In this document: positions 808 to 11,911 of the stretch, piece by piece
Layout: every line of letters begins with the position of its first letter
Numbering within the stretch: the first letter of the stretch is position 1
Origin: Acinetobacter geminorum
GTDB taxonomy: Bacteria; Pseudomonadota; Gammaproteobacteria; Pseudomonadales; Moraxellaceae
Reading direction: 5' to 3'
DNA length: 11,911 bases
Assembly (NCBI RefSeq): GCF_013009345.1
Contig: NZ_JABELE010000007.1
Span: 166,704-178,614, forward strand
The notes under the pieces: model-generated
What the model saw: the letters and a program-made list of their open reading frames with translations, nothing else
The model's database searches: none
Told to the model about the DNA's origin: nothing
Position numbers and translations under genes: made by a program

Positions 808-1782
808 TTAAATGGCATTACCGCACATGTCTGTTGTGCCCTGAGGGTAGCTAAACTGTAGCGCATTACGGTCAGTAATGAGTTCATTAGACAACTCTTG
901 TCCAAATAATTGTTCAGCATCTATTGATATAGCACTTGAGACAGAAAAGCTTATATTCTCAAGTGGAGCGGGTAAAGTAGATTTATATCCCTGATCAACA
1001 CCGTTTACGATAAAGCCAACCTGCTTAGTGTTTTGATTAATATATATGCCTAATCTCTGGTATCCATTTGAACTATTTGTCATGTTTTGACCCTTATAAT
1101 ATGGATTGTCAGGCCCGCTATTATCACTAAGTCGATAAGCTACAGAATAGTATAATCTAGCAGGATTCTCACCAAAATCTGGATCATAAGTGCCCATATT
1201 AAACCAATAGTTGGACCTAACTGTATAGCCATTATTTGTTACGCCATTAAAACCAATGGCAGAGGAGTAATAAGCAGAATTACCAAGTGATGAGTTCCCA
1301 AGAGCTGAGGTTGGAATCTTAAGCTCCATTTCAAATGCAATAATCCCTGTGTGAGGTATTATTAAATCACCAATGTCATTAGTCGAATTAAGGCTAGCTT
1401 TACTTCTAGCTACATACTCTACAGTACCATACTCATTTTCTGGCATAGGCTCTACTTTAAGACTAAATTTTTGGCCCGTTACCAATGGGAATATTTTCAT
1501 AGACCAATAGTCAGAGTGTTCATTATTCCAAAGATCATAATCTTCTTGAGTCGCGTCAAAATTATATTTGCAGACTGGGGCAGAGGAATTAAGGGAATTC
1601 GTTTGAGCTAATAGCATCTGTGGTGCTAATTTTTCATTCTTTGTAGTGGATGAAATGCTTTTAGATGCTACTTTTTGGCTAGATTCATTACCCAGTGCTG
1701 TATTGGTATTATCAGAAGATACTTCATACATTGCCCAACATAATGTCACTGCACTAACAGCAATTAAGCCTATTTTTTTCAT
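808..1782 (-). CDS. Secreted protein of unknown function (324 aa), beta-rich, Asn/Ser/Gly/Tyr-rich
   Basis: ATG at 1782 with GGAA 7 nt upstream. N-terminal signal peptide MKKIGLIAVSAVTLCWAMYEV. Two distal Cys (APVCKYNF near the N-terminus, DMCGNAI at the C-terminus) could form one disulfide. No motif that I can assign to a family; it may correspond to an Acinetobacter-restricted DUF family, unverified. Confidence 0.7.
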   Translation of the reverse strand: MKKIGLIAVSAVTLCWAMYEVSSDNTNTALGNESSQKVASKSISSTTKNEKLAPQMLLAQTNSLNSSAPVCKYNFDATQEDYDLWNNEHSDYWSMKIFPLVTGQKFSLKVEPMPENEYGTVEYVARSKASLNSTNDIGDLIIPHTGIIAFEMELKIPTSALGNSSLGNSAYYSSAIGFNGVTNNGYTVRSNYWFNMGTYDPDFGENPARLYYSVAYRLSDNSGPDNPYYKGQNMTNSSNGYQRLGIYINQNTKQVGFIVNGVDQGYKSTLPAPLENISFSVSSAISIDAEQLFGQELSNELITDRNALQFSYPQGTTDMCGNAI

Positions 1783-1879
1783 AAATGTTCCTATCGAGTT
1801 AAGTATTAAATTTTTAGAAAGTAGCGATAAAGCAAAATTTATTATTAATATTTAAATATTTGAAATTATGAAGTTTATA

Positions 1880-1913
1880 AACTATTGAATATGATTAATC
1901 ATATTCAATAGTT
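1880..1913. repeat. Perfect 34-bp palindrome (17-bp arms, no spacer) spanning the adhesin stop codon; possible operon-end hairpin
   Basis: aactattgaatatgatt|aatcatattcaatagtt equals its own reverse complement (checked base by base). The right arm encodes the last residues ..TIEYD* of the adhesin gene; the left arm is intergenic. There is no clean U-run after it on the minus strand, so terminator function is uncertain. Confidence 0.9.
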
Positions 1914-2905
1914 ACAGTAGCCATTGCACGCACTTTACCAGCAGTCACATTTGTTGCTGTTTGATAGTAGCGAGCAGTCATCGGTACGTTATATTGAATT
2001 GTCTGGTTAGAAGACAATGTACCTAAGGCTAATTTGTCACCTTTTTTGATGACCTGATTTTTATTTTGATAATTCCAGAGTAACTGTACACCTACGCCGT
2101 TTGCTTTTTCAGATGCGGCAGCCGTATTTGCCAATACCTGATTGTTTGTTCCATCTTGGGTAAAGTCGTAAGTTAAACTAATGAGATTTTTCTCTTCGTA
2201 ACCTGTTGGGTTGATACCGCCATTACAGAGAATGTTCATATCAAAGGTTTGTTCACCTTGAGTAGAACCAACACCTTTGAAGCCAGCCTTTGTAACTGTT
2301 GGTAATTGTACAACTTTATTAATATTACCTTGAATTTCACATGAAGATGATGCAATTGTAATGGCATTGGCATTGACAGTACTTGTTAAGAAGGGTTGAT
2401 TAGGAAAGCCCCGAATATAATAACTACTATACCTGCCTGGTACTAAGGTTCCAGAACCTGTTTGTGGGGCAATTTTAATAATTTCTACCACAAAGTAACC
2501 TGATGCTAAATAACGTCTACCAGATATTCCTCCACGTACATAAGGATAATAGCCAGAAAAATTAGTATTATTCTCGGCTTCACGATATAGGCGAATACCA
2601 ATACCGGGAATATTAGTAGTATAAATGCTATTGCCTAAAGGGCTTAAAGGATAAGCTTGGGTTAATTCTGCAACTACTGCATCACTATAGTCACAGTACC
2701 AAGCTTCTGTACTAGTACGACTAATAGGAAAAGTCGCTTTTCTTAAAATAGCACCGACTGGGTCGCTTGGACGCACAACAACACGCCCCACAGCCATAAG
2801 GACGTCATTTTTTTCATAATCATATATACGACAGGCAGCCTTAGCCTCGCCATAAATCCCAAGACCAGCGGTAAATAGAGCACCCGTTAATAATATTCTT
2901 TTCAT
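1895..2905 (-). CDS. Fimbrial tip adhesin-type subunit (two-domain: N-terminal putative receptor-binding domain plus C-terminal pilin domain)
   Basis: 336 aa, about twice pilin size, and the last gene of the operon. Its ATG overlaps the usher stop (ATGA at 2902-2905). Signal peptide MKRILLTGALFTAGLGIYGEAKA. The C-terminal half has the pilin signature SSCEIQG..VQLPTV....F.MNILCNGG and a C-terminal beta strand ATVTIEYD with penultimate Tyr. Confidence 0.8.
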   Translation of the reverse strand: MKRILLTGALFTAGLGIYGEAKAACRIYDYEKNDVLMAVGRVVVRPSDPVGAILRKATFPISRTSTEAWYCDYSDAVVAELTQAYPLSPLGNSIYTTNIPGIGIRLYREAENNTNFSGYYPYVRGGISGRRYLASGYFVVEIIKIAPQTGSGTLVPGRYSSYYIRGFPNQPFLTSTVNANAITIASSSCEIQGNINKVVQLPTVTKAGFKGVGSTQGEQTFDMNILCNGGINPTGYEEKNLISLTYDFTQDGTNNQVLANTAAASEKANGVGVQLLWNYQNKNQVIKKGDKLALGTLSSNQTIQYNVPMTARYYQTATNVTAGKVRAMATVTIEYD

Positions 2906-5460
2906 TTGCAGACAGCCTCAGTCATTACCATGCTTTGTTGCTTATTTTGCAACTGATTACTGATGTTGTACTCAACAGAACAACGTTCATTGCTTTCATC
3001 GCCCCATTTCACATAGAGACGATCTTGAGCAAGTGGAGTACGTAAGTAAATCATACTACCTTGTGCAACAATACCGACAGCTTCATCTTTTTGGTTAAAG
3101 ACTTGAGCTGCAAACGGTAAACTATTGCCATCTACAGTTTTACTATTAATGTAAACTGCATAACCAGTTTTAGTCGCAAAATCTACTTTAGCAATTGCGC
3201 CAGCAAAAGGTGCGATACGTTGACTTGTTTCTTCAAGCTCTACTTGGCTCGACATTTCTTGTGGGTCAAGGGTAATGTCATTAAGACGGTACGGAGTAAC
3301 ATAAGGAACTACCGCATAACCCGCTTTATTCACGCTCAAACCAACAGCATTATTAACTTTTGCTCCTGCAGCTTCTGGCGCATGCACAAGTACCATCGTT
3401 TGGCCTTGCTCAGGTCCAAATAAAATACCTTCTGAGTGTGCAACCACACTACCAGTTAAGCTAACCATTGCTTGTTGGTAAGAATCAGCCACACTATAAG
3501 AACCACCAACAGTTGTATAGTTGGTACGATAACGTCCATTTACGTTAAATGATGGATTTGAATAGTCCTGATGTGACATTGAAGCGCCGTAACTAAAGCG
3601 ATCTCCAACCATACCACTTGCACCAACAGTACGACTGTCTTCAGAAGCAGTAACGTTAACGTTAACTGAATTCTTTTTGAAATCAATCGGGAACGATAAT
3701 GTCATTAAATATTCAGTATCGTGTGTTTGATTGGTTGAGCCATATTCAACTTTACGGTTAATTGCAGATAAACCATAAGTTAAACCATGGAAGTTATTAC
3801 TGTAACCAACCTGATATTGTTTAGTACTTTCACTACGGTTCCAATAATCAACCCAAGAACCTACTACATAGAAGTTACCCCAACCTTCAGGTAAACCTTG
3901 GTTTAAGGTAATTTGGAATTCACTACGTTGACGACCAGCAGAGTAGGTATTAATACCTTTTTCTTCAAAATCACGAATCTGTAGAGCATCACGTAATTTA
4001 TAGAAGTTTTCTGTTGAGTAACGATAAGCTGCTAGTGTTAAGTTTGTGTTGGTTGGAGTAATTAACTTGCTATAACTTAAACGGAAACTTTGTCCTGACT
4101 GTGAAGACTGTTTTTCAAATTCAGCTTCAGAGTGGGTTACATCTAACGCCACGGCACCAATTGGTGTAGCAAAAGCGGCACCCAACAGTATAGCGGCATA
4201 ATTTTCAGTTGCTTGTATGCCTGTATAACCTGTTAGGTAATTATTAATCCCTTGTTGATATTTACCTTGAACAACCCAAGGATCAATATCAATATCTGAA
4301 TCACGGAACTGACCAATAGTTAAAGCATAACGATTCATGCCAGGACGAAGCATCTGCACAACAGATGCATAAGGCACAGCAAATTTCTGTATTTCCCCAT
4401 TCGCTTCGATAACAGAAACTTCAATTTCTCCACCAAAACCAGTAGGGTAAAGGTCATTAATTTCAAAGTTACCTGGTGCTACTGTTGTTTGATAGATAAG
4501 TTGGCCTTGTTGACGAACTTCAACTTTTGCATTGGTTTTAGCATTACCACGAATACGTGGAGCATAACCCACCATACTATTTGGTAACATACGATCATCA
4601 CTTGAGAAATCAATACCGCGATAACCATATGAATCAAATATTTCGCCGTTTGTAAAATTATCACCTAGTGTTAAGACACCTCGGTATTTCGGAAATGCTC
4701 TTTGTAAATATGTACTCGTTTCTTCGTAGCTTGACTTAGATTGATTTTCAGCAGGGGTATCCTGCCATTGCCACTGACCATTATGACGTAATTGCCAACC
4801 ACCTAAATTCAACCCAGCAGTCACTCCCATAAACGCATTTGATGTTTCGCGTATATCGCCAGATTGATTAAAAGTCTTATAAGCACTACCGTTATAAGAT
4901 AAAAATCCAGCATTAATACCACGATCCCATACACTTGGGTCGACATAGCCTTGCGCATTTTTTTGCAAAGCAACTTGCGGAATAGAAATATCTACACGTA
5001 AACGAGAGGTATCAAACTCATAAAATGCATTTTCAACCCACTCTTCAATTTTATAACAACTATTATTTTCTTTTTGAAGGGTAGTGTGTTTAGACAAAAC
5101 ATCTTGTTTAACGCCGTACTCAAGCAGGTTTGTTCCTGTGAAACAGGTTACAGCATTTTTATTTGGATCTAATGCTTTAAAGAACATACGACGTTTGCCA
5201 AACCATTGGCCATTTACATAAACGTCAACATTATATTCACCTGGTAAAACAGGATTACCATATTTAAAACGTGAAATATCAACTTTTTGAGCATCACCAA
5301 TTAAAAAAGCAGAATCAAATTCAGCTTCCACTGGTGCACTCGCGGTTGTTTCTTCAGCATGCACGAATACGGGCATTGTCATTGTGACAACACCAGAAGC
5401 CAAGTAGTAACAAATATGGCGTTTTAATAATTTATAAGATTCTTGCCTTTTTTTTGGCAT
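2902..5460 (-). CDS. Fimbrial outer-membrane usher (PapC/FimD family)
   Basis: 852 aa, with a signal-like N-terminus ending VFVHAEE. Usher N-domain motifs FDSAFL and GEYNVDVYVNG, a long beta-barrel-type sequence rich in G/Y/S/N, and a C-terminal Cys pair (ERCSVEY...EAVCK). Positioned between the chaperone and adhesin genes. Confidence 0.93.
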   Translation of the reverse strand: MPKKRQESYKLLKRHICYYLASGVVTMTMPVFVHAEETTASAPVEAEFDSAFLIGDAQKVDISRFKYGNPVLPGEYNVDVYVNGQWFGKRRMFFKALDPNKNAVTCFTGTNLLEYGVKQDVLSKHTTLQKENNSCYKIEEWVENAFYEFDTSRLRVDISIPQVALQKNAQGYVDPSVWDRGINAGFLSYNGSAYKTFNQSGDIRETSNAFMGVTAGLNLGGWQLRHNGQWQWQDTPAENQSKSSYEETSTYLQRAFPKYRGVLTLGDNFTNGEIFDSYGYRGIDFSSDDRMLPNSMVGYAPRIRGNAKTNAKVEVRQQGQLIYQTTVAPGNFEINDLYPTGFGGEIEVSVIEANGEIQKFAVPYASVVQMLRPGMNRYALTIGQFRDSDIDIDPWVVQGKYQQGINNYLTGYTGIQATENYAAILLGAAFATPIGAVALDVTHSEAEFEKQSSQSGQSFRLSYSKLITPTNTNLTLAAYRYSTENFYKLRDALQIRDFEEKGINTYSAGRQRSEFQITLNQGLPEGWGNFYVVGSWVDYWNRSESTKQYQVGYSNNFHGLTYGLSAINRKVEYGSTNQTHDTEYLMTLSFPIDFKKNSVNVNVTASEDSRTVGASGMVGDRFSYGASMSHQDYSNPSFNVNGRYRTNYTTVGGSYSVADSYQQAMVSLTGSVVAHSEGILFGPEQGQTMVLVHAPEAAGAKVNNAVGLSVNKAGYAVVPYVTPYRLNDITLDPQEMSSQVELEETSQRIAPFAGAIAKVDFATKTGYAVYINSKTVDGNSLPFAAQVFNQKDEAVGIVAQGSMIYLRTPLAQDRLYVKWGDESNERCSVEYNISNQLQNKQQSMVMTEAVCK

Positions 5461-5518
5461 AACTAAGTCCGCCTACTCACATAATAGGTGCTTAAATTTA
5501 TTAAAAAGATAAATCTGA

Positions 5519-6253
5519 TTACTGAAGTTTTATTTGGTGTTCGACTCGACCACCATAGTCATTGACATTCATAAAACTCATATCTTGAAGATTGCCATTC
5601 TTAAGCTGAACAGACTCTTCAGAAAAAGGTTTAATCATTAAACCTTGAGGTAATAAATCAACTTTTTTATCACCTGCCTTTTGGTAAACAGAAGTCATCG
5701 TAATGTGGAAAGGAGTTGGATTTTTTACCGTTAAATTCTGACCAGATTTAACCCATTGAAGCTTATCTGCTGCTAAATTCGCATCTTCTTTAATTGAAGC
5801 CGGACGATAGAAGAATTTGATCCGGGAACGAATTGCAAGTTGTAAGAAGTTATCAGGTGTCGTATCTGCATTTTTTGAGGTAGGTCTTGGTGGAATATCC
5901 AAAACGTTTAACCACAAAACAGTTTCTTGCTTCTGGTTAAATTGAGAAGCATTTGGAAGGGCAGTAATACGAAGCGTCTGACTTTTTGTCGCTTCAACAC
6001 GAGAAATTGGAGGAGCAATCATAAAAGGAACTTTTGATTGATCCGGAGTACTTTTTGGATCACCTTCATCAATCCAAGCTTGGACAAGTGCTGGTTTTGA
6101 ACCGTTATTGCTAACTTGTAGCGTAACTTCTCTAGCATCCGACGGATAAATTACACGGGTGCCATGAATTACAATTTCTGCTTGAGCGGCAGGAGCAGCA
6201 ACAGATGAAGCAAACGCCAAACCTAACAAAAAATTATAACTGTTCAATTTCAT
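5519..6253 (-). CDS. Periplasmic fimbrial chaperone (PapD/FimC family), start moved to the internal Met
   Basis: The ORF track starts at 6337, but MKLNSYNFLLGLAFASSVAAPAAQA (ATG at 6251-6253) is a proper signal peptide giving 244 aa, the normal chaperone size. The upstream 28 codons overlap a terminator hairpin. PapD-like motifs present: IVIHGTRVIYP, QAWID, PPISRVEA..SQTLRI, VLWLNVLDIPP, LQLAIRSRIKFFYRP. Confidence 0.9.
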   Translation of the reverse strand: MKLNSYNFLLGLAFASSVAAPAAQAEIVIHGTRVIYPSDAREVTLQVSNNGSKPALVQAWIDEGDPKSTPDQSKVPFMIAPPISRVEATKSQTLRITALPNASQFNQKQETVLWLNVLDIPPRPTSKNADTTPDNFLQLAIRSRIKFFYRPASIKEDANLAADKLQWVKSGQNLTVKNPTPFHITMTSVYQKAGDKKVDLLPQGLMIKPFSEESVQLKNGNLQDMSFMNVNDYGGRVEHQIKLQ

Positions 6254-6294
6254 TTTTCGAGTTCTCAACCAAGAAAGATTCAGGAAAGTGCTAC

Positions 6295-6330
6295 ACAAAA
6301 CAGGGTTTCCATGCGGACATAGAAACCCCG
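6295..6330 (-). terminator. Intra-operon hairpin/attenuator after the major pilin gene
   Basis: On the minus strand: gggtttc (6328-6322) / gaaaccc (6309-6303), 7-bp stem, 12-nt loop, followed by tgtttt. This is the usual arrangement in chaperone-usher operons, keeping pilin mRNA in excess over chaperone/usher mRNA. Confidence 0.55.
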
Positions 6331-6341
6331 CTATCAATTAA

Positions 6342-6875
6342 TTATTGATAGATAATTGTGTATTGAACAGAAGTAGTTACTTTACCAGCAGTAGAAGCAC
6401 CAGTTGCATAGTATTCAGCATAGTAGTTAAGGTCAGCACTTGCACCTTCAGCTACGTCAACCCATTGAGAGTTAGCTTGAGCACCGTTTGCACCAGCAGC
6501 AAGTACTGGGATGAAGTTGTTGTTGCTACCTAAAAGTTGAACGTTAACGTTTTTAGCACCAGTAGCGTCTGTGTTAAGTAAACGACCAGTATTAAAGTCA
6601 ACGTTAGCACCTGGTTCGAAGTAAGTAGCTACTTTACCTTCAGAACAGTTAGCTAATTTAATTTGGAAAGGAGTACGACCAGCAACATCCCCAGCAACAG
6701 CTAAAGTTTGTTTAGAAACAGTTGGAAGAGTAACTGTCAAGTCTTTACCACCGTTATTAACGATGTCACAAGTTTTGTCTGTAACTAAACCATTAATTGT
6801 AATTGTACCATCAGCAGCTTGAGCATTCGCAATCCCTACAACCGAAAGAGCAGCGATCAAAGCAAGTTTTTTCAT
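6342..6875 (-). CDS. Major fimbrial subunit (type 1 / FimA-family pilin)
   Basis: 177 aa, signal peptide MKKLALIAALSVVGIANAQA. Mature N-terminus ADGTITINGLVTDKTCDI (donor-strand motif plus first Cys), second Cys in KLANCSEG, C-terminal strand TSVQYTIIYQ with penultimate Tyr. First gene of the operon. Confidence 0.9.
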   Translation of the reverse strand: MKKLALIAALSVVGIANAQAADGTITINGLVTDKTCDIVNNGGKDLTVTLPTVSKQTLAVAGDVAGRTPFQIKLANCSEGKVATYFEPGANVDFNTGRLLNTDATGAKNVNVQLLGSNNNFIPVLAAGANGAQANSQWVDVAEGASADLNYYAEYYATGASTAGKVTTSVQYTIIYQ

Positions 6876-7366
6876 AGTGTTTTCTCAAAGGTCTGGATAA
6901 AAGTTTAATTCCTTACTTTTCCAGTGTTTGACATCTTGAAAAGTAATGCCGCAATATTAACACTTCTTAAACAAAATGCAAACTACATCACATTATTTTT
7001 TCATATTTTTAATTTTAACACACAATTTATTTGGAATGTAGAGCTAGTATTTACAACTTATGCAGCTGTTTATAAAAGTTTTTTTGTTTTCTGAAAGAAA
7101 GATGCTATGTAAAAAAGTAAGTTACATAAGAACACTATGAAAATTGAAAAGAATTAAACAATTTATGTGAAAAATAAGCTTAAACTCTTAGAATACAATT
7201 ATATAGAATAAACTGTGTATATGTATACAAAAAAATAGACAAATAGTCATTTTTGATGAAAAAGAGCTAACAAATCATCAATTCATAAAAATGTGCGATG
7301 AATTCGACAAATCACTCTTTTATCCAAGCTTACTAATGAAATAAGCTCAAATATTCTAGTTATAAG

Positions 7367-7657
7367 TTAGTGATAATTGATAAGTACAACCTTGTGATTA
7401 GAACCTATACTTTCAATACTAGTGTCCATTTTCTCAGTGTGTTGAGCTAATTTAAAAAGACTATCTTTATTTAAATATTCATTATCAAGTTTAATATTTA
7501 AATTATTTACATCAACACATTCTATCTCACTATGTTCTCTTGAACACGTATCTTCAACAATATTTCCTCTTATCATTATTGTGTTATTTGCATAACAAAA
7601 TAGTGGGGAAGCGGAAAGCACCATCAAAACAAGAAGTTTAAATATATTATTTTTCAT
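7367..7657 (-). CDS. Small (96 aa) signal-peptide protein with pilin-like N- and C-termini; possible internally deleted pilin remnant
   Basis: ATG at 7657 with AGGT about 10 nt upstream. Signal peptide MKNNIFKLLVLMVLSASPLFCYA. The mature N-terminus NNTIMIRGNIVEDTC matches the pilin pattern TIxIxGxhxxxTC of the neighbouring major pilin (GTITINGLVTDKTC). The C-terminus KVVLINYH resembles the pilin F-strand with penultimate Tyr. About 73 mature residues is too short for a full pilin Ig fold. Very AT-rich, so coding status is uncertain. Confidence 0.4.
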   Translation of the reverse strand: MKNNIFKLLVLMVLSASPLFCYANNTIMIRGNIVEDTCSREHSEIECVDVNNLNIKLDNEYLNKDSLFKLAQHTEKMDTSIESIGSNHKVVLINYH

Positions 7658-7980
7658 TTTATATACCTATTTATAAAATAGCTTATATATAGTTGATACA
7701 TTATTTTTAATTTAAAAACAATCATTAAGCTTAAAATAATAAAAATTATTAATTTTCACGTGATATAAATCACATTAACCATTTTAAATAATGTAATAGT
7801 TAAAATTCTTAAACCATATTAATCCATGTAATTAGTTAAAAATTAAATAATTAATATAAATTATTGATATTTAATTAATTTTTAAAAAATAGATTAATAA
7901 ATCAACTAAATGATATATGATTAAACATATAATTTACTTATTTGATTTATAATTTATGTTTCAAAATTATTACCGAGAAA
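7658..7980. other. Extremely AT-rich tract (putative curved / nucleoid-protein-bound regulatory DNA)
   Basis: Hand count: 41 G/C in the 300 nt 7681-7980 (about 14% G+C) and 13 G/C in 7801-7920 (about 11%). No ORF of 60 aa or more on either strand. Confidence 0.7.
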
Positions 7981-8421
7981 TAAAATATGGATTTTAATAA
8001 AAATGTGACCAAATATACATTATCGAAGCAATGTGTAATTAAATTTGCTTTATATTGTAGATCCTGAGTATATAAGATCTAATGAATTAGAATTTAGCAT
8101 ACACTTTAAATATTTTAGGAAAATGAACTAACGAAATATAATTCGTAGATTCCTTTGGATTTAGGTAGGAGAAAAGTTCAATAAAAATCAAACAAGCGAT
8201 TATTAGCCGAACCTAATCATAATTTCTATTTAATTAGATTTATGAATACTATTTATTATGCATCAATAGCAACTTCAGAAGATGCTAGTGCTGAATTTAA
8301 TTAGAATAAAGATTCATTCCACATAGCTAAAACGTACCACAATAGCTAGAAAGAGAAATAAGTACTACAAACAAATGAAGGATAGCTACCAAGCTATGGG
8401 TCAATATTGAATTATATGACT

Positions 8422-8505
8422 GTTCGTATAATGTGATGCACAGATTATGTTACTAAGCCCCAGTGAGAACATTGTTAGTCTCACGGGGCTTTTTAACATC
8501 AATCT
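8422..8505 (+). repeat. Left copy of the 84-nt direct repeat (junction with chromosomal DNA)
   Basis: gttcgTataatgtgatgcacagattatgttactaagccccagtgagaacattgttagtctcacggggctttttaacatcaatct. 83/84 identical to 11828-11911; the only difference is T8427 versus C11833. Sequences immediately upstream of the two copies are unrelated. Confidence 0.95.
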
Positions 8506-8517
8506 GCATTATGCGAA
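8423..8517 (+). other. About 95-nt imperfect (forked) hairpin carrying inverted dif-like half-sites: putative ssDNA attP and/or packaging signal
   Basis: Pairing checked by hand. 8423-8433 pairs with 8507-8517 (XerC-arm-like TTCG(T/C)ATAATG). A 7-nt bulge follows at 8434-8440. 8441-8446 pairs with 8501-8506, with a 1-nt bulge at c8500. 8447-8452 pairs with 8494-8499, followed by 2 mismatches. 8455-8461 pairs with 8485-8491, with a bulge at a8462. 8463-8468 pairs with 8479-8484, closing a 10-nt loop. Confidence 0.65.
8457..8494 (+). terminator. Rho-independent terminator-like hairpin forming the tip of the att/packaging hairpin
   Basis: gcccc(a)gtgaga - 10-nt loop - tctcacggggc followed by ttttt (8490-8494). 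In the circular phage map it sits just after the last + strand ORF, as the f1 packaging-signal hairpin doubles as the gene IV terminator. Confidence 0.6.
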
Positions 8518-8533
8518 TTTGAAGCCGAGGCGG

Positions 8534-8578
8534 GGAGTCCACGTCTTCTAATGGTGGACTCTAGTCCGAAATTTCGGA
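8534..8578 (+). other. Ff-type (+)-strand origin core: nick-site hairpin plus adjacent Rep-binding palindrome
   Basis: ggagtccacgt (8534-8544) and gtggactct (8554-8562) are identical to the f1 origin core as I recall it (GGAGTCCACGTTCTTTAATAGTGGACTCTTGTTCCAAACTGGAACAA). Same 8-bp stem and the same 11-nt loop length (gtcttctaatg versus GTTCTTTAATA). A second inverted repeat, tccgaaatttcgga (8565-8578), follows immediately. Confidence 0.75.
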
Positions 8579-8582
8579 ATTT

Positions 8583-8795
8583 TTATAGATCTTTTGCGTT
8601 TCTTACAACTACTTTTCCATGTGCTGATATCTCAACATTTTCTATAGCTTGATCAAGGATGATGTGTACAAGCTCACTATCCTTGATCGGCTGTAGATTT
8701 TTATTGATCAGAATTTTATTGAGCTCTACACACTTCTTTCGTAGAGATTCTTGCTCTTTGTCATTTAAACGAACTGTTACTGCCATTTTCGTCAC
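8583..8795 (-). CDS. Small DNA-binding regulator, probably ribbon-helix-helix (Arc/CopG-like) phage repressor
   Basis: 70 aa, divergent from rep. The N-terminus (M)AVTVRLNDKEQESLRKKCVELNKIL fits a beta-strand followed by helix A, and DSELVHIILDQAIENV fits helix B. The listed start at 8795 is GTG; an ATG at 8786 (MAVTVRL, 67 aa) is an alternative. No good SD for either. Confidence 0.55.
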   Translation of the reverse strand: MTKMAVTVRLNDKEQESLRKKCVELNKILINKNLQPIKDSELVHIILDQAIENVEISAHGKVVVRNAKDL

Positions 8796-8915
8796 ATTTT
8801 CGGGTTATTAACTTGCATACAATATTACTTGTATATCTGTTATATGTGCTTGCTATTCATGTGTAATTGTATTAAATTCCGCTTAATGTTATTTGTATAC
8901 ATGCGTAATTAGACC
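8796..8915. promoter_or_regulatory. Divergent control region between the regulator and rep
   Basis: Candidate + strand promoter TTGCTA (8850-8855) - 17 nt - TAAATT (8873-8878), about 35 nt upstream of the rep ATG. Repeated word TTGTATA at 8829-8835 and 8893-8899, and its near-complement cATACAA at 8816-8822, forming an inverted repeat atacaa-N6-ttgtat. These are plausible operators. No experimental support. Confidence 0.4.
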
Positions 8916-9800
8916 ATGCTAGATCATATTTGCATAAATGCGCCTTTTGAATCCAGCTTCTACTCAGTAGATGCGGAAGGGCGTTATTTTTTTGTAGATA
9001 TCGATCTTCACAGTATAGAAATACCGCTTGCTTCTCGTTCTGTTCATAAGAATGACGATGGTTCAATTTCTGCTGCTGCGTTATTCCATCCGTTTGAGTC
9101 GGTTCCGACTCATTACACTGGTATGGCAATGAAAGTTTTTTTTGATTCTTCGTATGAACCTTTTGTACAGATCAAGGCTTCTCCTGCGAAATTGCTGCAA
9201 GGGCATAATGTCTTTGGCAGCGACAACATAGAGCAGGGTGCTATGGAAATGATCGGCTTCTTACATGAAGCTTATCCGCTTCTTGCAAGGATGCTAGATT
9301 GGCCTCGTGCATGGGTTTCACATATTGATGTGACTTACTCAGTACGATTGAAAGACCAGAACACAGCTAAAAAAGTTTTGGATTTCTTGAGCAATGTCAG
9401 CAATGGCCAGACTCGTTTAAGTAACAAGCGTTTCGACAGTTCAGTATATTGGGGAGGTCAGACTTCAAGACTTGTGAATCACAAGTGTTATATGAAGCAT
9501 GACGAATTTATCGCTCAATTTGAGGAGTATAAGCAACTTGCAAAGAAGAACGATAAAGCAGCTCAACGAGTTGTTGATGTCATGTCCAATTCGGATCTGA
9601 TTAACTGGACTGTCGGTCTTTTACGTTTTGAATCACGTTTAAAAAAACGTTGGCTTGAACGTAATGGAATTCCTACCAATCTCAGTTATGAAACCTTTTG
9701 TTTAGGGGCCTCTTATGCTCGACCGTGGATTATTTTTGTAGGCATGTTAACTGCCTTCTTCATTGTCACTGGACATTATCGAGGGGGTAGTAATGATTAG
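8916..9800 (+). CDS. Rolling-circle replication initiator, filamentous-phage gene II (gpII / Phage_CRI) family, C-terminally short
   Basis: Motifs shared with f1 gpII as I recall it: HPFESVPTHYTG (f1 HPFESLPTHYSG), IKASPAKLLQGHNVFG (f1 IKASPAKVLQGHNVFG), NVSNGQT, LLRFESRLKKRWL..GIPTNL (f1 LVRFEARIKTRYL..GLPLNL). Candidate catalytic region SSVYWGGQTSR....YMKHDE. It is 294 aa versus 410 aa for f1 gpII. An in-frame stop lies 6 nt upstream of the ATG, so the start is fixed. Confidence 0.9.
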   Translation: MLDHICINAPFESSFYSVDAEGRYFFVDIDLHSIEIPLASRSVHKNDDGSISAAALFHPFESVPTHYTGMAMKVFFDSSYEPFVQIKASPAKLLQGHNVFGSDNIEQGAMEMIGFLHEAYPLLARMLDWPRAWVSHIDVTYSVRLKDQNTAKKVLDFLSNVSNGQTRLSNKRFDSSVYWGGQTSRLVNHKCYMKHDEFIAQFEEYKQLAKKNDKAAQRVVDVMSNSDLINWTVGLLRFESRLKKRWLERNGIPTNLSYETFCLGASYARPWIIFVGMLTAFFIVTGHYRGGSND

Positions 9801-10083
9801 AGGATTAATATTTTTATTGATGTATGTAGGCGAGAAATTCTTAACTACTGCATTTAAAAAATTATTGGCTGGTGCAGGTTTGGGACTTGTTTCATTTGCA
9901 ATTTCACAGTCAGTTTTTTCAATTTTACTTAACTATGTAAACAATCAATTTCAGCAGCTTTCAGGTCTATTTTATTTAATTGACCTTGCGGGGGTTGATG
10001 TTGCTATCAGCTATATTTTGTCTGCAATTTCAATACGCATAACAATGAACGCGGGCAAATTATCGATTAGGAAACTACAATAA
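9793..10083 (+). CDS. Small hydrophobic virion/assembly protein, pVI / Ace-like (96 aa from the ATG)
   Basis: The ORF track starts at a TTG (9763). ATG at 9793 is preceded by GAGGGGG (9781-9787), giving MIRGLIFLLMYVG.... It has several hydrophobic segments, is similar in size to f1 pVI (112 aa) and CTXphi Ace (97 aa), and sits immediately upstream of the pI/Zot gene with a TAATG stop/start overlap at 10081-10085. Confidence 0.65.
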   Translation: MIRGLIFLLMYVGEKFLTTAFKKLLAGAGLGLVSFAISQSVFSILLNYVNNQFQQLSGLFYLIDLAGVDVAISYILSAISIRITMNAGKLSIRKLQ

Positions 10084-11567
10084 TGTTATACGCTATCATT
10101 GCAAAGCCTGGTCAGGGGAAATCATATTTTGCTGTTGTTCGTATGTATGAAGAGCAGCAAAAAAATTTAGAAAATCTTAAAAAGAATGCTCCTATTTTTG
10201 AAGAAAATAGAAAGTTACTAGAAGATCGTGATCTACTAAAACGTGATTTTACGTATACCTATGAGCTAGGTGATAAAACACTTCAAAAAACCTCTAATCA
10301 TGAAGATTTCGATGTGTTGGAGGATGCGGAGCAGTTTGAGGAATATTTCGAATATTACTTTTTTTATAATAAATATATTGAGCAGATTACCAAAGAGGAA
10401 GGAATTGCATTAACTGCATTGCTTCCAGTAAGGCAAATTTATTCAAATATTAACGGTTTAAAAATTGCAGGTGTTTTGCCATTTCCAGATATTGACTGGC
10501 GTAAAACTCCGATGGGTTCTATTCATTACATTGATGAGATTCGTAGACGTCCTCCTTACAAATGGGAAGGCCGAGTACCATCTCAAGATCCAATTATTTT
10601 AGGTATGTCTGAGGTGCGTCATACCGATAAAGATGTATGGCTTATTTCTCAAGATGCAGAAGATTTAAACTATTCGCTTAGACAGTTAATCGATAAGCTG
10701 TATTTTGTTAAAAGACCACCTCAAAACCCACAGGCTTGCGGTATTTATGTATTCGATAAATATCTTAGTCGCCCACGTGATGCAGCAGATTCACAACGCG
10801 ATCCGAAGAAGTATGTTGATTATTTTCTGTTAGTTTATAAAAAGAAATTTCAACGCATGTATGTTAGTGCATCTTCTCATACATCAATGAAATTCAGGAT
10901 TTCGCCAAAAGTATTTGCATACATATTTTTGTTTTTTGCCATATTAACGATTGCCATTGTCGGCTTTATGAAAATACCTATTTTTCAAAGTTTTGGCAGT
11001 GCAATTAAGCAAATGACAGGACAGGAAAAAGATGCATTTAGTCAATTACAGTCGGGACCTCAAGTTGCTGATGACAAGTCGAAATCTATGGCTGACAAAT
11101 TAAAATATGAAGCTGAGTGCGGTACTTTAACACCAGAACAATGTGCTGATTTGAAGAATCCAGAAGTCAGAAATAATCAACTACAGCAAGTAAATGATGT
11201 TCGTATGGAGACAATTGCAGTCAAGTACAATCCGAATAGGCCTTATGATGTTGATACTTCAAAGATTGAGTATCAAGTGACGTCTAAGCCTGTATTTGCG
11301 GGCTGTATGAAGAAAAAAGGTAGATATGTTGCTTACACTGAACAGGGCACAATTTTGCATGATGTGAGCCAGTCAGACTGTGCGAAACTGATTGAAGATA
11401 ATGACCGTCCGTACAACTACTTTAAGCAGCAATCACAAGGTTTTTCGCAACCACAGCAGGCACAACAATTGCCACAGCAACCACAACAAGCTGATTACCC
11501 GTCTCGATATAAAGAGGCTGAAATTATCGCTAAGTACGAGGCAGCAAAACAGCAAGGCTTAATTTAA
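10083..11567 (+). CDS. zot: Filamentous-phage assembly ATPase, pI / Zot family
   Basis: N-terminal Walker A AKPGQGKS (residues 7-14) and Walker B HYIDE (148-152). DVWLISQD matches f1 pI DIIFLVQD. One TM helix VFAYIFLFFAILTIAIVGFM (277-296) is followed by a ~198-aa C-terminal domain. AGGAA lies 10 nt upstream, and the start is coupled to the previous gene. Confidence 0.92.
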   Translation: MLYAIIAKPGQGKSYFAVVRMYEEQQKNLENLKKNAPIFEENRKLLEDRDLLKRDFTYTYELGDKTLQKTSNHEDFDVLEDAEQFEEYFEYYFFYNKYIEQITKEEGIALTALLPVRQIYSNINGLKIAGVLPFPDIDWRKTPMGSIHYIDEIRRRPPYKWEGRVPSQDPIILGMSEVRHTDKDVWLISQDAEDLNYSLRQLIDKLYFVKRPPQNPQACGIYVFDKYLSRPRDAADSQRDPKKYVDYFLLVYKKKFQRMYVSASSHTSMKFRISPKVFAYIFLFFAILTIAIVGFMKIPIFQSFGSAIKQMTGQEKDAFSQLQSGPQVADDKSKSMADKLKYEAECGTLTPEQCADLKNPEVRNNQLQQVNDVRMETIAVKYNPNRPYDVDTSKIEYQVTSKPVFAGCMKKKGRYVAYTEQGTILHDVSQSDCAKLIEDNDRPYNYFKQQSQGFSQPQQAQQLPQQPQQADYPSRYKEAEIIAKYEAAKQQGLI

Positions 11568-11625
11568 ATTTCTTCTCTTTGATTACAAAAACCGTCTATT
11601 TGATGTAACGTAGCTGTATAGAAAA

Positions 11626-11709
11626 GTGTCTTCAGGGGAATTGAGACACATCGAGTAAACACTTAAATCTTGTACAATTTTTGCGTGTCTCAAGGCGTAG
11701 TCTAGACAC
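11626..11709. repeat. Two inverted repeats built from the same hexamer: GTGTCT-N12-AGACAC and GTGTCT-N13-AGACAC
   Basis: GTGTCT at 11626-11631 / AGACAC at 11644-11649; GTGTCT at 11685-11690 / AGACAC at 11704-11709. They lie in the 159-nt gap between zot and the 32-aa ORF. Function unknown (operator pair, or ssDNA hairpins of a minus-strand origin). Confidence 0.8.
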
Positions 11710-11726
11710 TTTGGCGGGTGGGATAT

Positions 11727-11825
11727 ATGACAAATGATGATATTGCTTTAGTACTTTTTTTGATTTTTATCTTTTTTGCAGCCCTCTACTATGTTTTGAA
11801 ATCCATTAAAGAAACTTCGCTCTGA
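11727..11825 (+). CDS. 32-aa hydrophobic peptide, candidate small coat protein (pVII/pIX/pVIII-like)
   Basis: Not in the ORF track (too short). ATG at 11727 is preceded by gggtggg. Translation: MTNDDIALVLFLIFIFFAALYYVLKSIKETSL, with an acidic N-terminus, a 19-residue hydrophobic core and a Lys-containing C-terminus. Stop at 11823-11825, 2 nt before the repeat. Short ORFs are easily spurious. Confidence 0.4.
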   Translation: MTNDDIALVLFLIFIFFAALYYVLKSIKETSL

Positions 11826-11827
11826 AA

Positions 11828-11911
11828 GTTCGCATAATGTGATGCACAGATTATGTTACTAAGCCCCAGTGAGAACATTGTTAGTCTCACGGGGCTTTTT
11901 AACATCAATCT
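11828..11911 (+). repeat. Right copy of the 84-nt direct repeat, truncated by the window edge
   Basis: Same sequence as 8422-8505, offset 3,406 bp, with C at 11833. It starts 2 nt after the stop of the 32-aa ORF. Confidence 0.95.
11863..11900 (+). terminator. Second copy of the same terminator-like hairpin, directly downstream of the 32-aa ORF and zot
   Basis: Identical sequence to 8457-8494 (offset 3,406). Hairpin plus T5 about 40 nt after the stop at 11825. Confidence 0.6.

Follow-up and report, generated by a model that had tools for sequence, protein, structure and literature searches.

Probable left end of a deleted, integrase-less 'Af'-type filamentous prophage array at the dif site of Acinetobacter geminorum

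The window analysed here, an 11,911-nt stretch of Acinetobacter geminorum DNA (contig NZ_JABELE010000007.1, positions 166,704 to 178,614), carries at positions 8422-11911 what is very probably the left end of a deleted, integrase-less filamentous prophage array of the Acinetobacter 'Af' type, seated at the chromosomal dif site. Judged by its genes and by comparison with unoccupied loci, the element is an integrase-less, Ff-like inovirus inserted exactly at dif. With its 3.4-kb unit, it represents a known kind of phage in damaged form and is no half-size inovirus.

The element is framed by direct repeats at 8417-8505 and 11823-11911 (89 nt, 97% identity, spacing 3406). The original prediction, made from the letters of the window, had described an 84-nt direct repeat, identical at 83 of 84 positions and with its right copy cut by the window edge, and the repeat search bore this out: 8422-8505 and 11828-11911 differ only at T8427 versus C11833, the final 78 nt are exact, and the right copy reaches the end of the window. 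Chance is not a sufficient explanation, because the second-best direct repeat of the window spans only 33 nt at 73% identity. Two empty sites at the same locus in other assemblies (L005 and L011) read ...TATATGAC TGTTCGTATAA TGTATA TTATGTTAAAT AGGATATC..., a sequence that we identify as the canonical 28-bp chromosomal dif; the published dif of A. baylyi ADP1 differs from it only in the two outermost bases (PMC2731167). Comparison with these sites places the insertion exactly at dif, as the proposed dif-type junction required, and shows that the XerC-arm-like motif at which the repeat was said to start is a true XerC arm. The element starts at about 8421. At the left junction, the XerC arm and the start of the central region are still of host origin and phage sequence takes over from there, with the crossover between 8427 and 8434. 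The T8427/C11833 difference distinguishes the host XerC arm from the phage XerC arm and thus marks the exchanged arm, and a host XerC arm followed by a phage central region is consistent with XerC-side strand exchange.

The repeat makes up most of a cassette of ~100 nt that contains two inverted dif-like sites with spacers of 13 bp and 6 bp. In the first of these, site A, the XerC arm (8421/11827) is separated from the XerD-like arm by 13 bp, not 6 bp. As an ordinary duplex dif-like site it was rejected for this distance between its XerC-like and XerD-like arms; a fold with an inverted partner site accounts for it better. The partner, with a 6-bp spacer, lies on the minus strand beyond a GC-rich hairpin. 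In the predicted single-stranded DNA fold, the XerC arms pair over 11 bp, a seven-base bulge follows, pairing resumes at the XerD arms, and the hairpin is closed by the distal stem. For the phage copy, folding as DNA reached a dG of -39.7 kcal/mol (z -7.7), and cassette-only folds of two cassette types gave z values of -6.8 to -10.2. By pattern scanning, the cassette was found in 46 IMG/VR contigs, and a scan of species representatives yielded one match only, in an A. lactucae contig. Its conservation is bounded by the two inverted XerC arms, beyond which the flanks differ, and it occurs in phages whose downstream modules are not the same. A comparison of 22 distinct cassettes showed invariant arms save for two compensatory arm-pair changes, with the variation confined to bulge and terminal loop; the distal stems of the two cassette types are unrelated in sequence, each being self-complementary. 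With no integrase of its own, insertion at dif and two computationally recognised inverted dif-like sites, the element shows these features of the CTXphi type, and the modelled repeat closely resembles the folding attP of that phage. The GC stem of the distal hairpin and its T-run may also terminate the core operon; a terminator consensus scan did not call the hairpin, because its loop is too long.

Several assemblies with the same chromosomal locus, the two empty ones among them, were obtained through the exact protein of a neighbouring 96-aa gene. The exact Zot-like protein of the element is present on three other contigs, in as many assemblies, and one of these, GCA_039887275.1 (L001), is the same locus. 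By BLAST, L001 matches the window at 99.98% over 3240-9683 and at 99.9% over 9676-11911, with 3,157 extra bases between the two blocks. The intact phage unit of L001 measures 6,563 nt and is ordered as attP cassette, Ff-type origin, divergent regulator, Rep, 107-aa protein and a further Xer-type site (site B), followed by small open reading frames (ORFs), coat, adsorption protein, pVI-like protein, Zot, small ORF and attP. Rep is intact there (407 aa, with Phage_CRI and G2P_X_C), the coat-like protein has 89 aa and a weak Phage_Coat_B match (E 0.002), and the adsorption protein is g3-like with 506 aa.

The deletion junction, 9683/9684 in the window, corresponds to 6444/9602 in L001 (BLAST breakpoints). 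Its ends lie at imperfect CCAATnT repeats, and the left copy would have lost the 3,157 bp by illegitimate deletion between them. Missing are the C-domain of Rep, the 107-aa gene of the RS (replication) module, site B, the gene for the coat protein and the greater part of g3, and Rep residue ~256 is joined in frame to the final 38 residues, a membrane anchor, of the adsorption protein. Because the deletion fuses Rep to g3, ORF 8916-9800 covers only positions 2-240 of the 382 of phrog_702, and its tail matches the C-terminus of phrog_7568, a g3-type family. The 35-nt junction had no match in the genome, viral and metagenome collections searched, and a search for the exact 294-aa sequence of the fusion protein returned no record; since both are absent from these collections, the deletion is read as a private lesion of the window, not as a phage type. 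The suggestion that a 3.4-kb unit might be a half-size phage or a satellite was not supported: the window unit corresponds to the 6,563-nt phage without the 3,157 bp deleted in the window only, and this subtraction gives the 3,406-bp period. Nor does the unit have the composition of an RS1-like satellite, as its Rep is truncated and its 107-aa gene gone, with zot and the pVI-like gene kept.

Beyond zot, the right repeat retains the phage central region TGTGATGCACAGA and lacks the TGTATA-TTATGTTAAAT of dif. A plain attR was rejected for this reason, and the earlier view of the right repeat as the start of another copy holds. The window ends 14 nt short of the end of this cassette. The continuation that had been predicted past the window (gcattatgcgaatttgaagccgaggcggggagtccacg), with a regulator and Rep after it, is found exactly in L001, where after Zot and the small ORF come the cassette, origin, regulator, full Rep (407 aa), 107-aa gene and a hybrid of site B and dif. 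This right end, ACTTCGTATAA-TGTATA-TTATGTTAAAT followed by host DNA, restores a complete dif. The two replication modules of L001 are identical over 2.1 kb save for the recombined half-sites, so that its layout, read from the sequence, is replication module, core, replication module, an arrangement resembling CTX-RS1. Of the proposed tandem array, the start of another copy at the right repeat is upheld; L001 shows a full and a partial copy, not equal units. Arrays with a second origin, tandem or RS-flanked, are present in L001, L007 and L052, and the window shows the first 85 nt of its next copy. The bulge (TGATGCA) and terminal loop (AACATTGTTAG) of the right copy equal those of the left copy and, among the fetched cassettes, both occur together only in L001 and its duplicate contigs. 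The chromosome past position 11911 is accordingly expected, with rather high confidence, to continue as in L001.

The features of the unit are collected in Table 1. ORF and profile searches confirmed the anticipated Ff order of Rep, pVI-like protein and Zot with a divergent small regulator, and they detected no integrase ORF in 8422-11911. The assignment of Rep to the gpII family was upheld by Phage_CRI, although the protein is a truncated fusion without G2P_X_C; the Zot assignment was carried by phrog_197 and not by Pfam Zot, which stayed below its cut-off (E 0.029). In the Zot-like ATPase, AKPGQGKS forms the Walker A motif, and a single transmembrane segment is located near residue 270. A gpII-family Rep (N-terminal domain only), a pI/Zot-type ATPase and an Ff-type origin mark the unit as inoviral; the coat and adsorption genes are missing from it, and because of their absence the window copy is taken to be a defective remnant of an inovirus prophage.

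The Ff-type origin hairpin named in the original prediction was confirmed by local alignment to the M13 (+) origin GGAGTCCACGTTCTTTAATAGTGGACTC (V00604, positions 5765-5809). The hairpin GGAGTCCAC-GTCTTCTAATG-GTGGACTC (8534-8561) and the downstream palindrome align over 47 columns with 2 gap regions and few mismatches, nearly all positions matching, and the hairpin also appears in the DNA fold. By homology to the nick site of M13 gpII, a nick is predicted between T8549 and A8550. The divergent 67-aa protein belongs to phrog_5642, a family without assigned function; its DUF6290 match is weak and below threshold (E 0.053), and no sequence match was found in the PDB. Its rstR-like position makes it a probable repressor. 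The small hydrophobic ORF had no family match, and its TGA stop in the context ...cTGAaAGTTCGCATAA is kept in most related phages. For 11560-11735, considered as a possible site of a packaging signal or of a minus-strand origin, the fold was no better than that of shuffled sequences (z -0.76).

Table 1. Coordinates of the attachment sites, origin and genes of the element in the window
Feature	Position	Strand	Basis and remarks
attL (dif/attP-cassette hybrid)	8421..8519	+	Empty-site comparison, repeat, DNA fold
Host XerC arm of attL	8421-8431		TGTTCGTATAA
Phage 13-nt spacer of attL			TGTGATGCACAGA
XerD-arm-like part of attL			TTATGTTACTA
Distal GC hairpin of attL	8458-8490
Inverted dif-like site of attL	8492-8519		Minus strand, AATTCGCATAA-TGCAGA-TTGATGTTAAA
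Ff-type (+)-strand origin	8534..8579	+	Hairpin GGAGTCCAC/GTGGACTC, loop GTCTTCTAATG, then palindrome TCCGAAATTTCGGA
Divergent small protein, 67 aa (70 aa from GTG at 8795)	8583..8786	-	phrog_5642 E 4.4e-26
Truncated Rep'-'g3 fusion, 294 aa	8916..9800	+	Phage_CRI E 4.4e-50, N-terminal part only
pVI-position small membrane protein, 96 aa	9793..10083	+	DUF2523 30.8 bits (cut-off 22.1), phrog_1242; same gene in L001
pI/Zot-like assembly ATPase, 494 aa	10083..11567	+	phrog_197 E 3.6e-42
Small hydrophobic ORF, 32 aa	11727..11825	+	ORF list; stop codon one base before phage XerC arm
Intact phage attP cassette opening next copy	11827..11911	+	XerC arm AGTTCGCATAA; repeat; L001 comparison

The CTXphi analogy drawn earlier proved apt. 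In CTXphi, attP1 has a 12-bp central region and attP2 one of 5-7 bp; the two are inverted and fold in the (+) strand, XerC performs the sole strand exchange, and the production of a unit-length single strand from a chromosomal copy depends on tandem copies (PMC4246890). By the same route, the inverted dif-like sites in the packaged (+) strand of the Acinetobacter phage would anneal to each other as a bulged hairpin on which XerC and XerD arms are displayed, XerC would swap one strand pair with dif, and replication would finish the integration. The left repeat would then be attL and the right repeat the unrecombined attP cassette of the next copy, with the predicted order past the window's zot being attP, origin, regulator, Rep (407 aa), 107-aa gene and ACTTCGTATAATGTATATTATGTTAAAT. 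This downstream replication module would supply the second origin, Rep nicking at origin 1 and terminating at origin 2. The left copy would retain the regulator, an inactive Rep'-'g3 fusion and, both intact, the pVI-like gene and zot, so that after the deletion, origin-to-origin replication by the Rep of the right copy would give a 3,406-nt circle without capsid genes. The array is most likely a decaying, non-infectious prophage, since a released 3.4-kb circle of this kind could not build virions. The left copy would have no functional Rep, and it would be unable to leave by Xer excision through site B, because the deletion removed that site.

The period of 3,406 bp, the second attP cassette that begins on schedule, and a unit retaining origin, attP, regulator, pVI-like gene and zot could together suggest a natural 3.4-kb mini-inovirus or satellite, present as equal functional units in tandem at dif and released by origin-to-origin rolling-circle replication. 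We regard this as very unlikely: the unit is the larger phage minus 3,157 bp with breakpoints inside Rep and g3, its Rep is without the C-terminal domain, and the intact core is present in three assemblies, whereas the deletion junction is in no other genome, viral or metagenome contig of the collections searched. It is also quite improbable that the second copy, though real, carries a different replication module or belongs to a different phage. Mixed arrays of this sort do occur at Acinetobacter dif, where for example RS-RS-RS, RS(CRI)-RS(Rep_trans)-core and a pair of different phages in succession were found, and the cassette is common to phages with different downstream modules. However, the right copy shares with the left one the pair of bulge and terminal loop that, among the fetched cassettes, is specific to L001 and its duplicates, and the flanks are 99.98% identical to L001, whose two replication modules are identical.

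An assembly artefact would take one of two forms, the terminal 84 nt being a graph overlap at a collapsed repeat or the 3,157-bp deletion being a misjoin. Short-read relatives (L002, L003 and L013) do end 36-113 nt into the repeat, and the exact terminal repeat of 78 nt is close to a common assembler k-mer size. Yet the microhomology at the junction, CCAATCTC against CCAATTT, is imperfect, and with 5-7 nt it could hardly lead an assembler astray, and the contig reads straight across the 1.26 kb that a repeat would comprise. Even if the terminal bases were a graph overlap, the phage-type site past zot would be real and would imply a second cassette. An artefact of either form is thus given little credence.

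Four points weigh against the interpretation of the element as the left end of a deleted 'Af'-type array. Simple CTX-type integration of the whole phage leads one to expect a right junction between the attP XerC arm and dif, and this was seen at 0 of 10 right ends. The dependence on XerCD, the single-stranded substrate and the origin-to-origin replication are carried over by analogy from CTXphi. The private deletion and the fused protein come from a single window, in which the second copy is deduced from 85 nt and a near-identical relative. Finally, a repeat-induced assembly break is conceivable if the window end coincides with a contig end.

The right ends can be set beside a census of junctions in the fetched loci. 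It gave 47 phage-type attP sites, 41 internal B sites (two more were mislabelled by the classifier), and 9 hybrids of B-left and attP between stacked replication modules. All 6 left ends were host-left/attP and all 10 right ends B-left/dif; attP-left/dif and host-left/B junctions numbered 0 each. Because no attP-left/dif junction occurred among the 10 right ends, the integration pathway needs at least one further step, which probably involves site B. In intact relatives, site B is a single 28-bp duplex dif-like site, ACTTCGTATAA-TGTATA-ATATGTAAATA, with dif's central region plus a weak XerD arm, and it lies between replication module and core in all related phages. Among the arrays are inserts consisting of a replication module only, others with three such modules and some that mix unrelated phages, and an unrelated inovirus with a Rep_trans replication protein at the same dif (L007) has the same layout.

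A tentative and rather doubtful generalization is that Acinetobacter inoviruses as a group bracket the replication module with two Xer sites, a CTXphi-type folding attP and a VGJphi-type duplex B, and use them in a two-reaction pathway that makes the module independently mobile between unrelated phages. In one reaction, single-stranded integration through the cassette would be followed by recombination of B with dif, which would lose the core and leave a replication-module-only resident; in the other, the replicative form would integrate reversibly through B. All junction classes seen agree with this scheme, and two Xer reactions are their simplest reading, but other orders of events yield the same classes. 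No description of the two-site architecture or of the base-level attP structure was found in the searchable literature, in a search that was not exhaustive. If true, the architecture could explain the shuffling of replication modules and cores and the building of arrays at the dif of an important nosocomial genus.

Next to site B, a tiny ORF of 29-37 aa with a zinc-finger-like CxxC...H..C motif begins 11-32 nt past the site (L001:7328-7420). Of 30 distinct related phages, 25 carry it in the corresponding place, as the first gene of the structural core even beside unrelated Rep families, and it is deleted from the window. From its position beside a Xer site, a role as recombination accessory factor or regulator is possible.

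The chromosome around the element is Acinetobacter-like, with a zinc alcohol dehydrogenase gene fragment, a DUF4882 gene, a pilus operon and the 96-aa gene. The operon, on the minus strand at 808-6875 and adjoining dif, is of the chaperone-usher type and complete, encoding a fimbrial subunit, a chaperone, an usher and an MrkD-like adhesin, with the DUF4882 protein beside it; the present finding is not connected to it. Relatives have an RND-efflux outer-membrane gene on the right side of dif. Between the 96-aa gene and dif, at 7660-8400, lie ~750 bp of non-coding DNA with a GC content of 16-28%. Within 8411-8431, TTATATGAcTG of the host flank and the XerC arm of dif (TTCGTATAA) together make an inverted repeat, a feature that is also seen upstream of many B sites of phages and, in other species, in the host-left flanks. 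In four other strains (L008, L009, L012 and L014), other islands start at this locus directly past the XerD arm of an intact dif, with tyrosine recombinase pairs or trios, a HipA toxin, a Fic protein and helicases; the right side of dif is here a general insertion hotspot.

What the window captures is most likely a decaying prophage that the deletion, by taking away both Rep function and site B, would have locked in place. The comparison set provides base-pair-resolved attachment sites of Acinetobacter filamentous phages, for which the retrieved passages of published work speak of 'probably' XerCD/dif, and it offers computational evidence that a folding attP in the style of CTXphi exists beyond the enteric and Vibrio hosts of its definition.

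Among known systems, the nearest in host genus and gene set are, as far as the retrieved passages describe them, the filamentous 'Af' prophages of A. baumannii described in 2024 (Narancic et al., 2024; PMC11209303) and phage M02/AfM2 (OQ693633; PMC12285184). Acinetobacter 'Af' phages with replication modules at their flanks have thus been published before. The passages that a term search retrieved from these two papers contain neither the word 'attP' nor a description of such a site. M02 is the closest deposited record, with 85% nucleotide identity in Rep and 91% in the attP-origin region; its core genes differ from those of the window phage, the phages being strongly mosaic. The L001 and L007 phages, in turn, have in common 1.18 kb (90.5% identity) that encode an N-terminal portion of the adsorption protein (L001 8198-9380), and have unrelated replication modules (Phage_CRI versus Rep_trans), whereas M02 shares the replication module and not the core. 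The M02 record itself (L004) contains at 5817-6243 a 139-nt duplication, a B/dif hybrid and 288 nt of host DNA, the last matching the host DNA to the right of dif in another locus at 94%. The 'complete circular genome' record is prophage-derived, with a true unit of about 5,816 nt.

With Ff (M13/f1/fd), the element shares a gpII-family Rep, complete with Phage_CRI and G2P_X_C in the intact relative, an M13-like origin hairpin and the gene order Rep, small protein, coat, g3, g6 and g1. Unlike the element, Ff phages do not integrate, and dif-like sites are absent from them; the element, for its part, has no secretin gene, and the window copy is also without the coat gene and most of g3. An internal deletion that spares origin and intergenic signals and costs essential genes recalls the Ff miniphages, although here it is fixed in a chromosomal prophage and the 3.4-kb product is a predicted one. 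The single duplex dif-like attP of the VGJphi-type IMEX (integrative mobile elements exploiting Xer) finds its counterpart in site B of the intact relatives, which forms the dif hybrids at the right ends; unlike that type, B coexists with a CTX-type cassette, and it is deleted in the window copy. A close parallel is drawn with CTXphi, which likewise has no integrase, inserts at dif and leaves a left junction of host XerC arm and phage central region. Its attP also consists of two inverted dif-like sites, one with a long spacer (12 bp in attP1, 13 bp here) and the other with about 6 bp. The rstR-rstA-rstB order is matched by regulator, Rep and small protein, followed by coat, adsorption protein, the pVI/Ace-position gene and Zot, and, as with RS1/RS2, the arrays close with an extra replication module as a potential second origin. 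Unlike CTXphi, the Acinetobacter phages have a cassette of ~100 nt rather than ~150 nt, an origin hairpin that is nearly that of Ff and no toxin cargo, and they add the duplex site B, so that their right ends are B/dif and not attP/dif.

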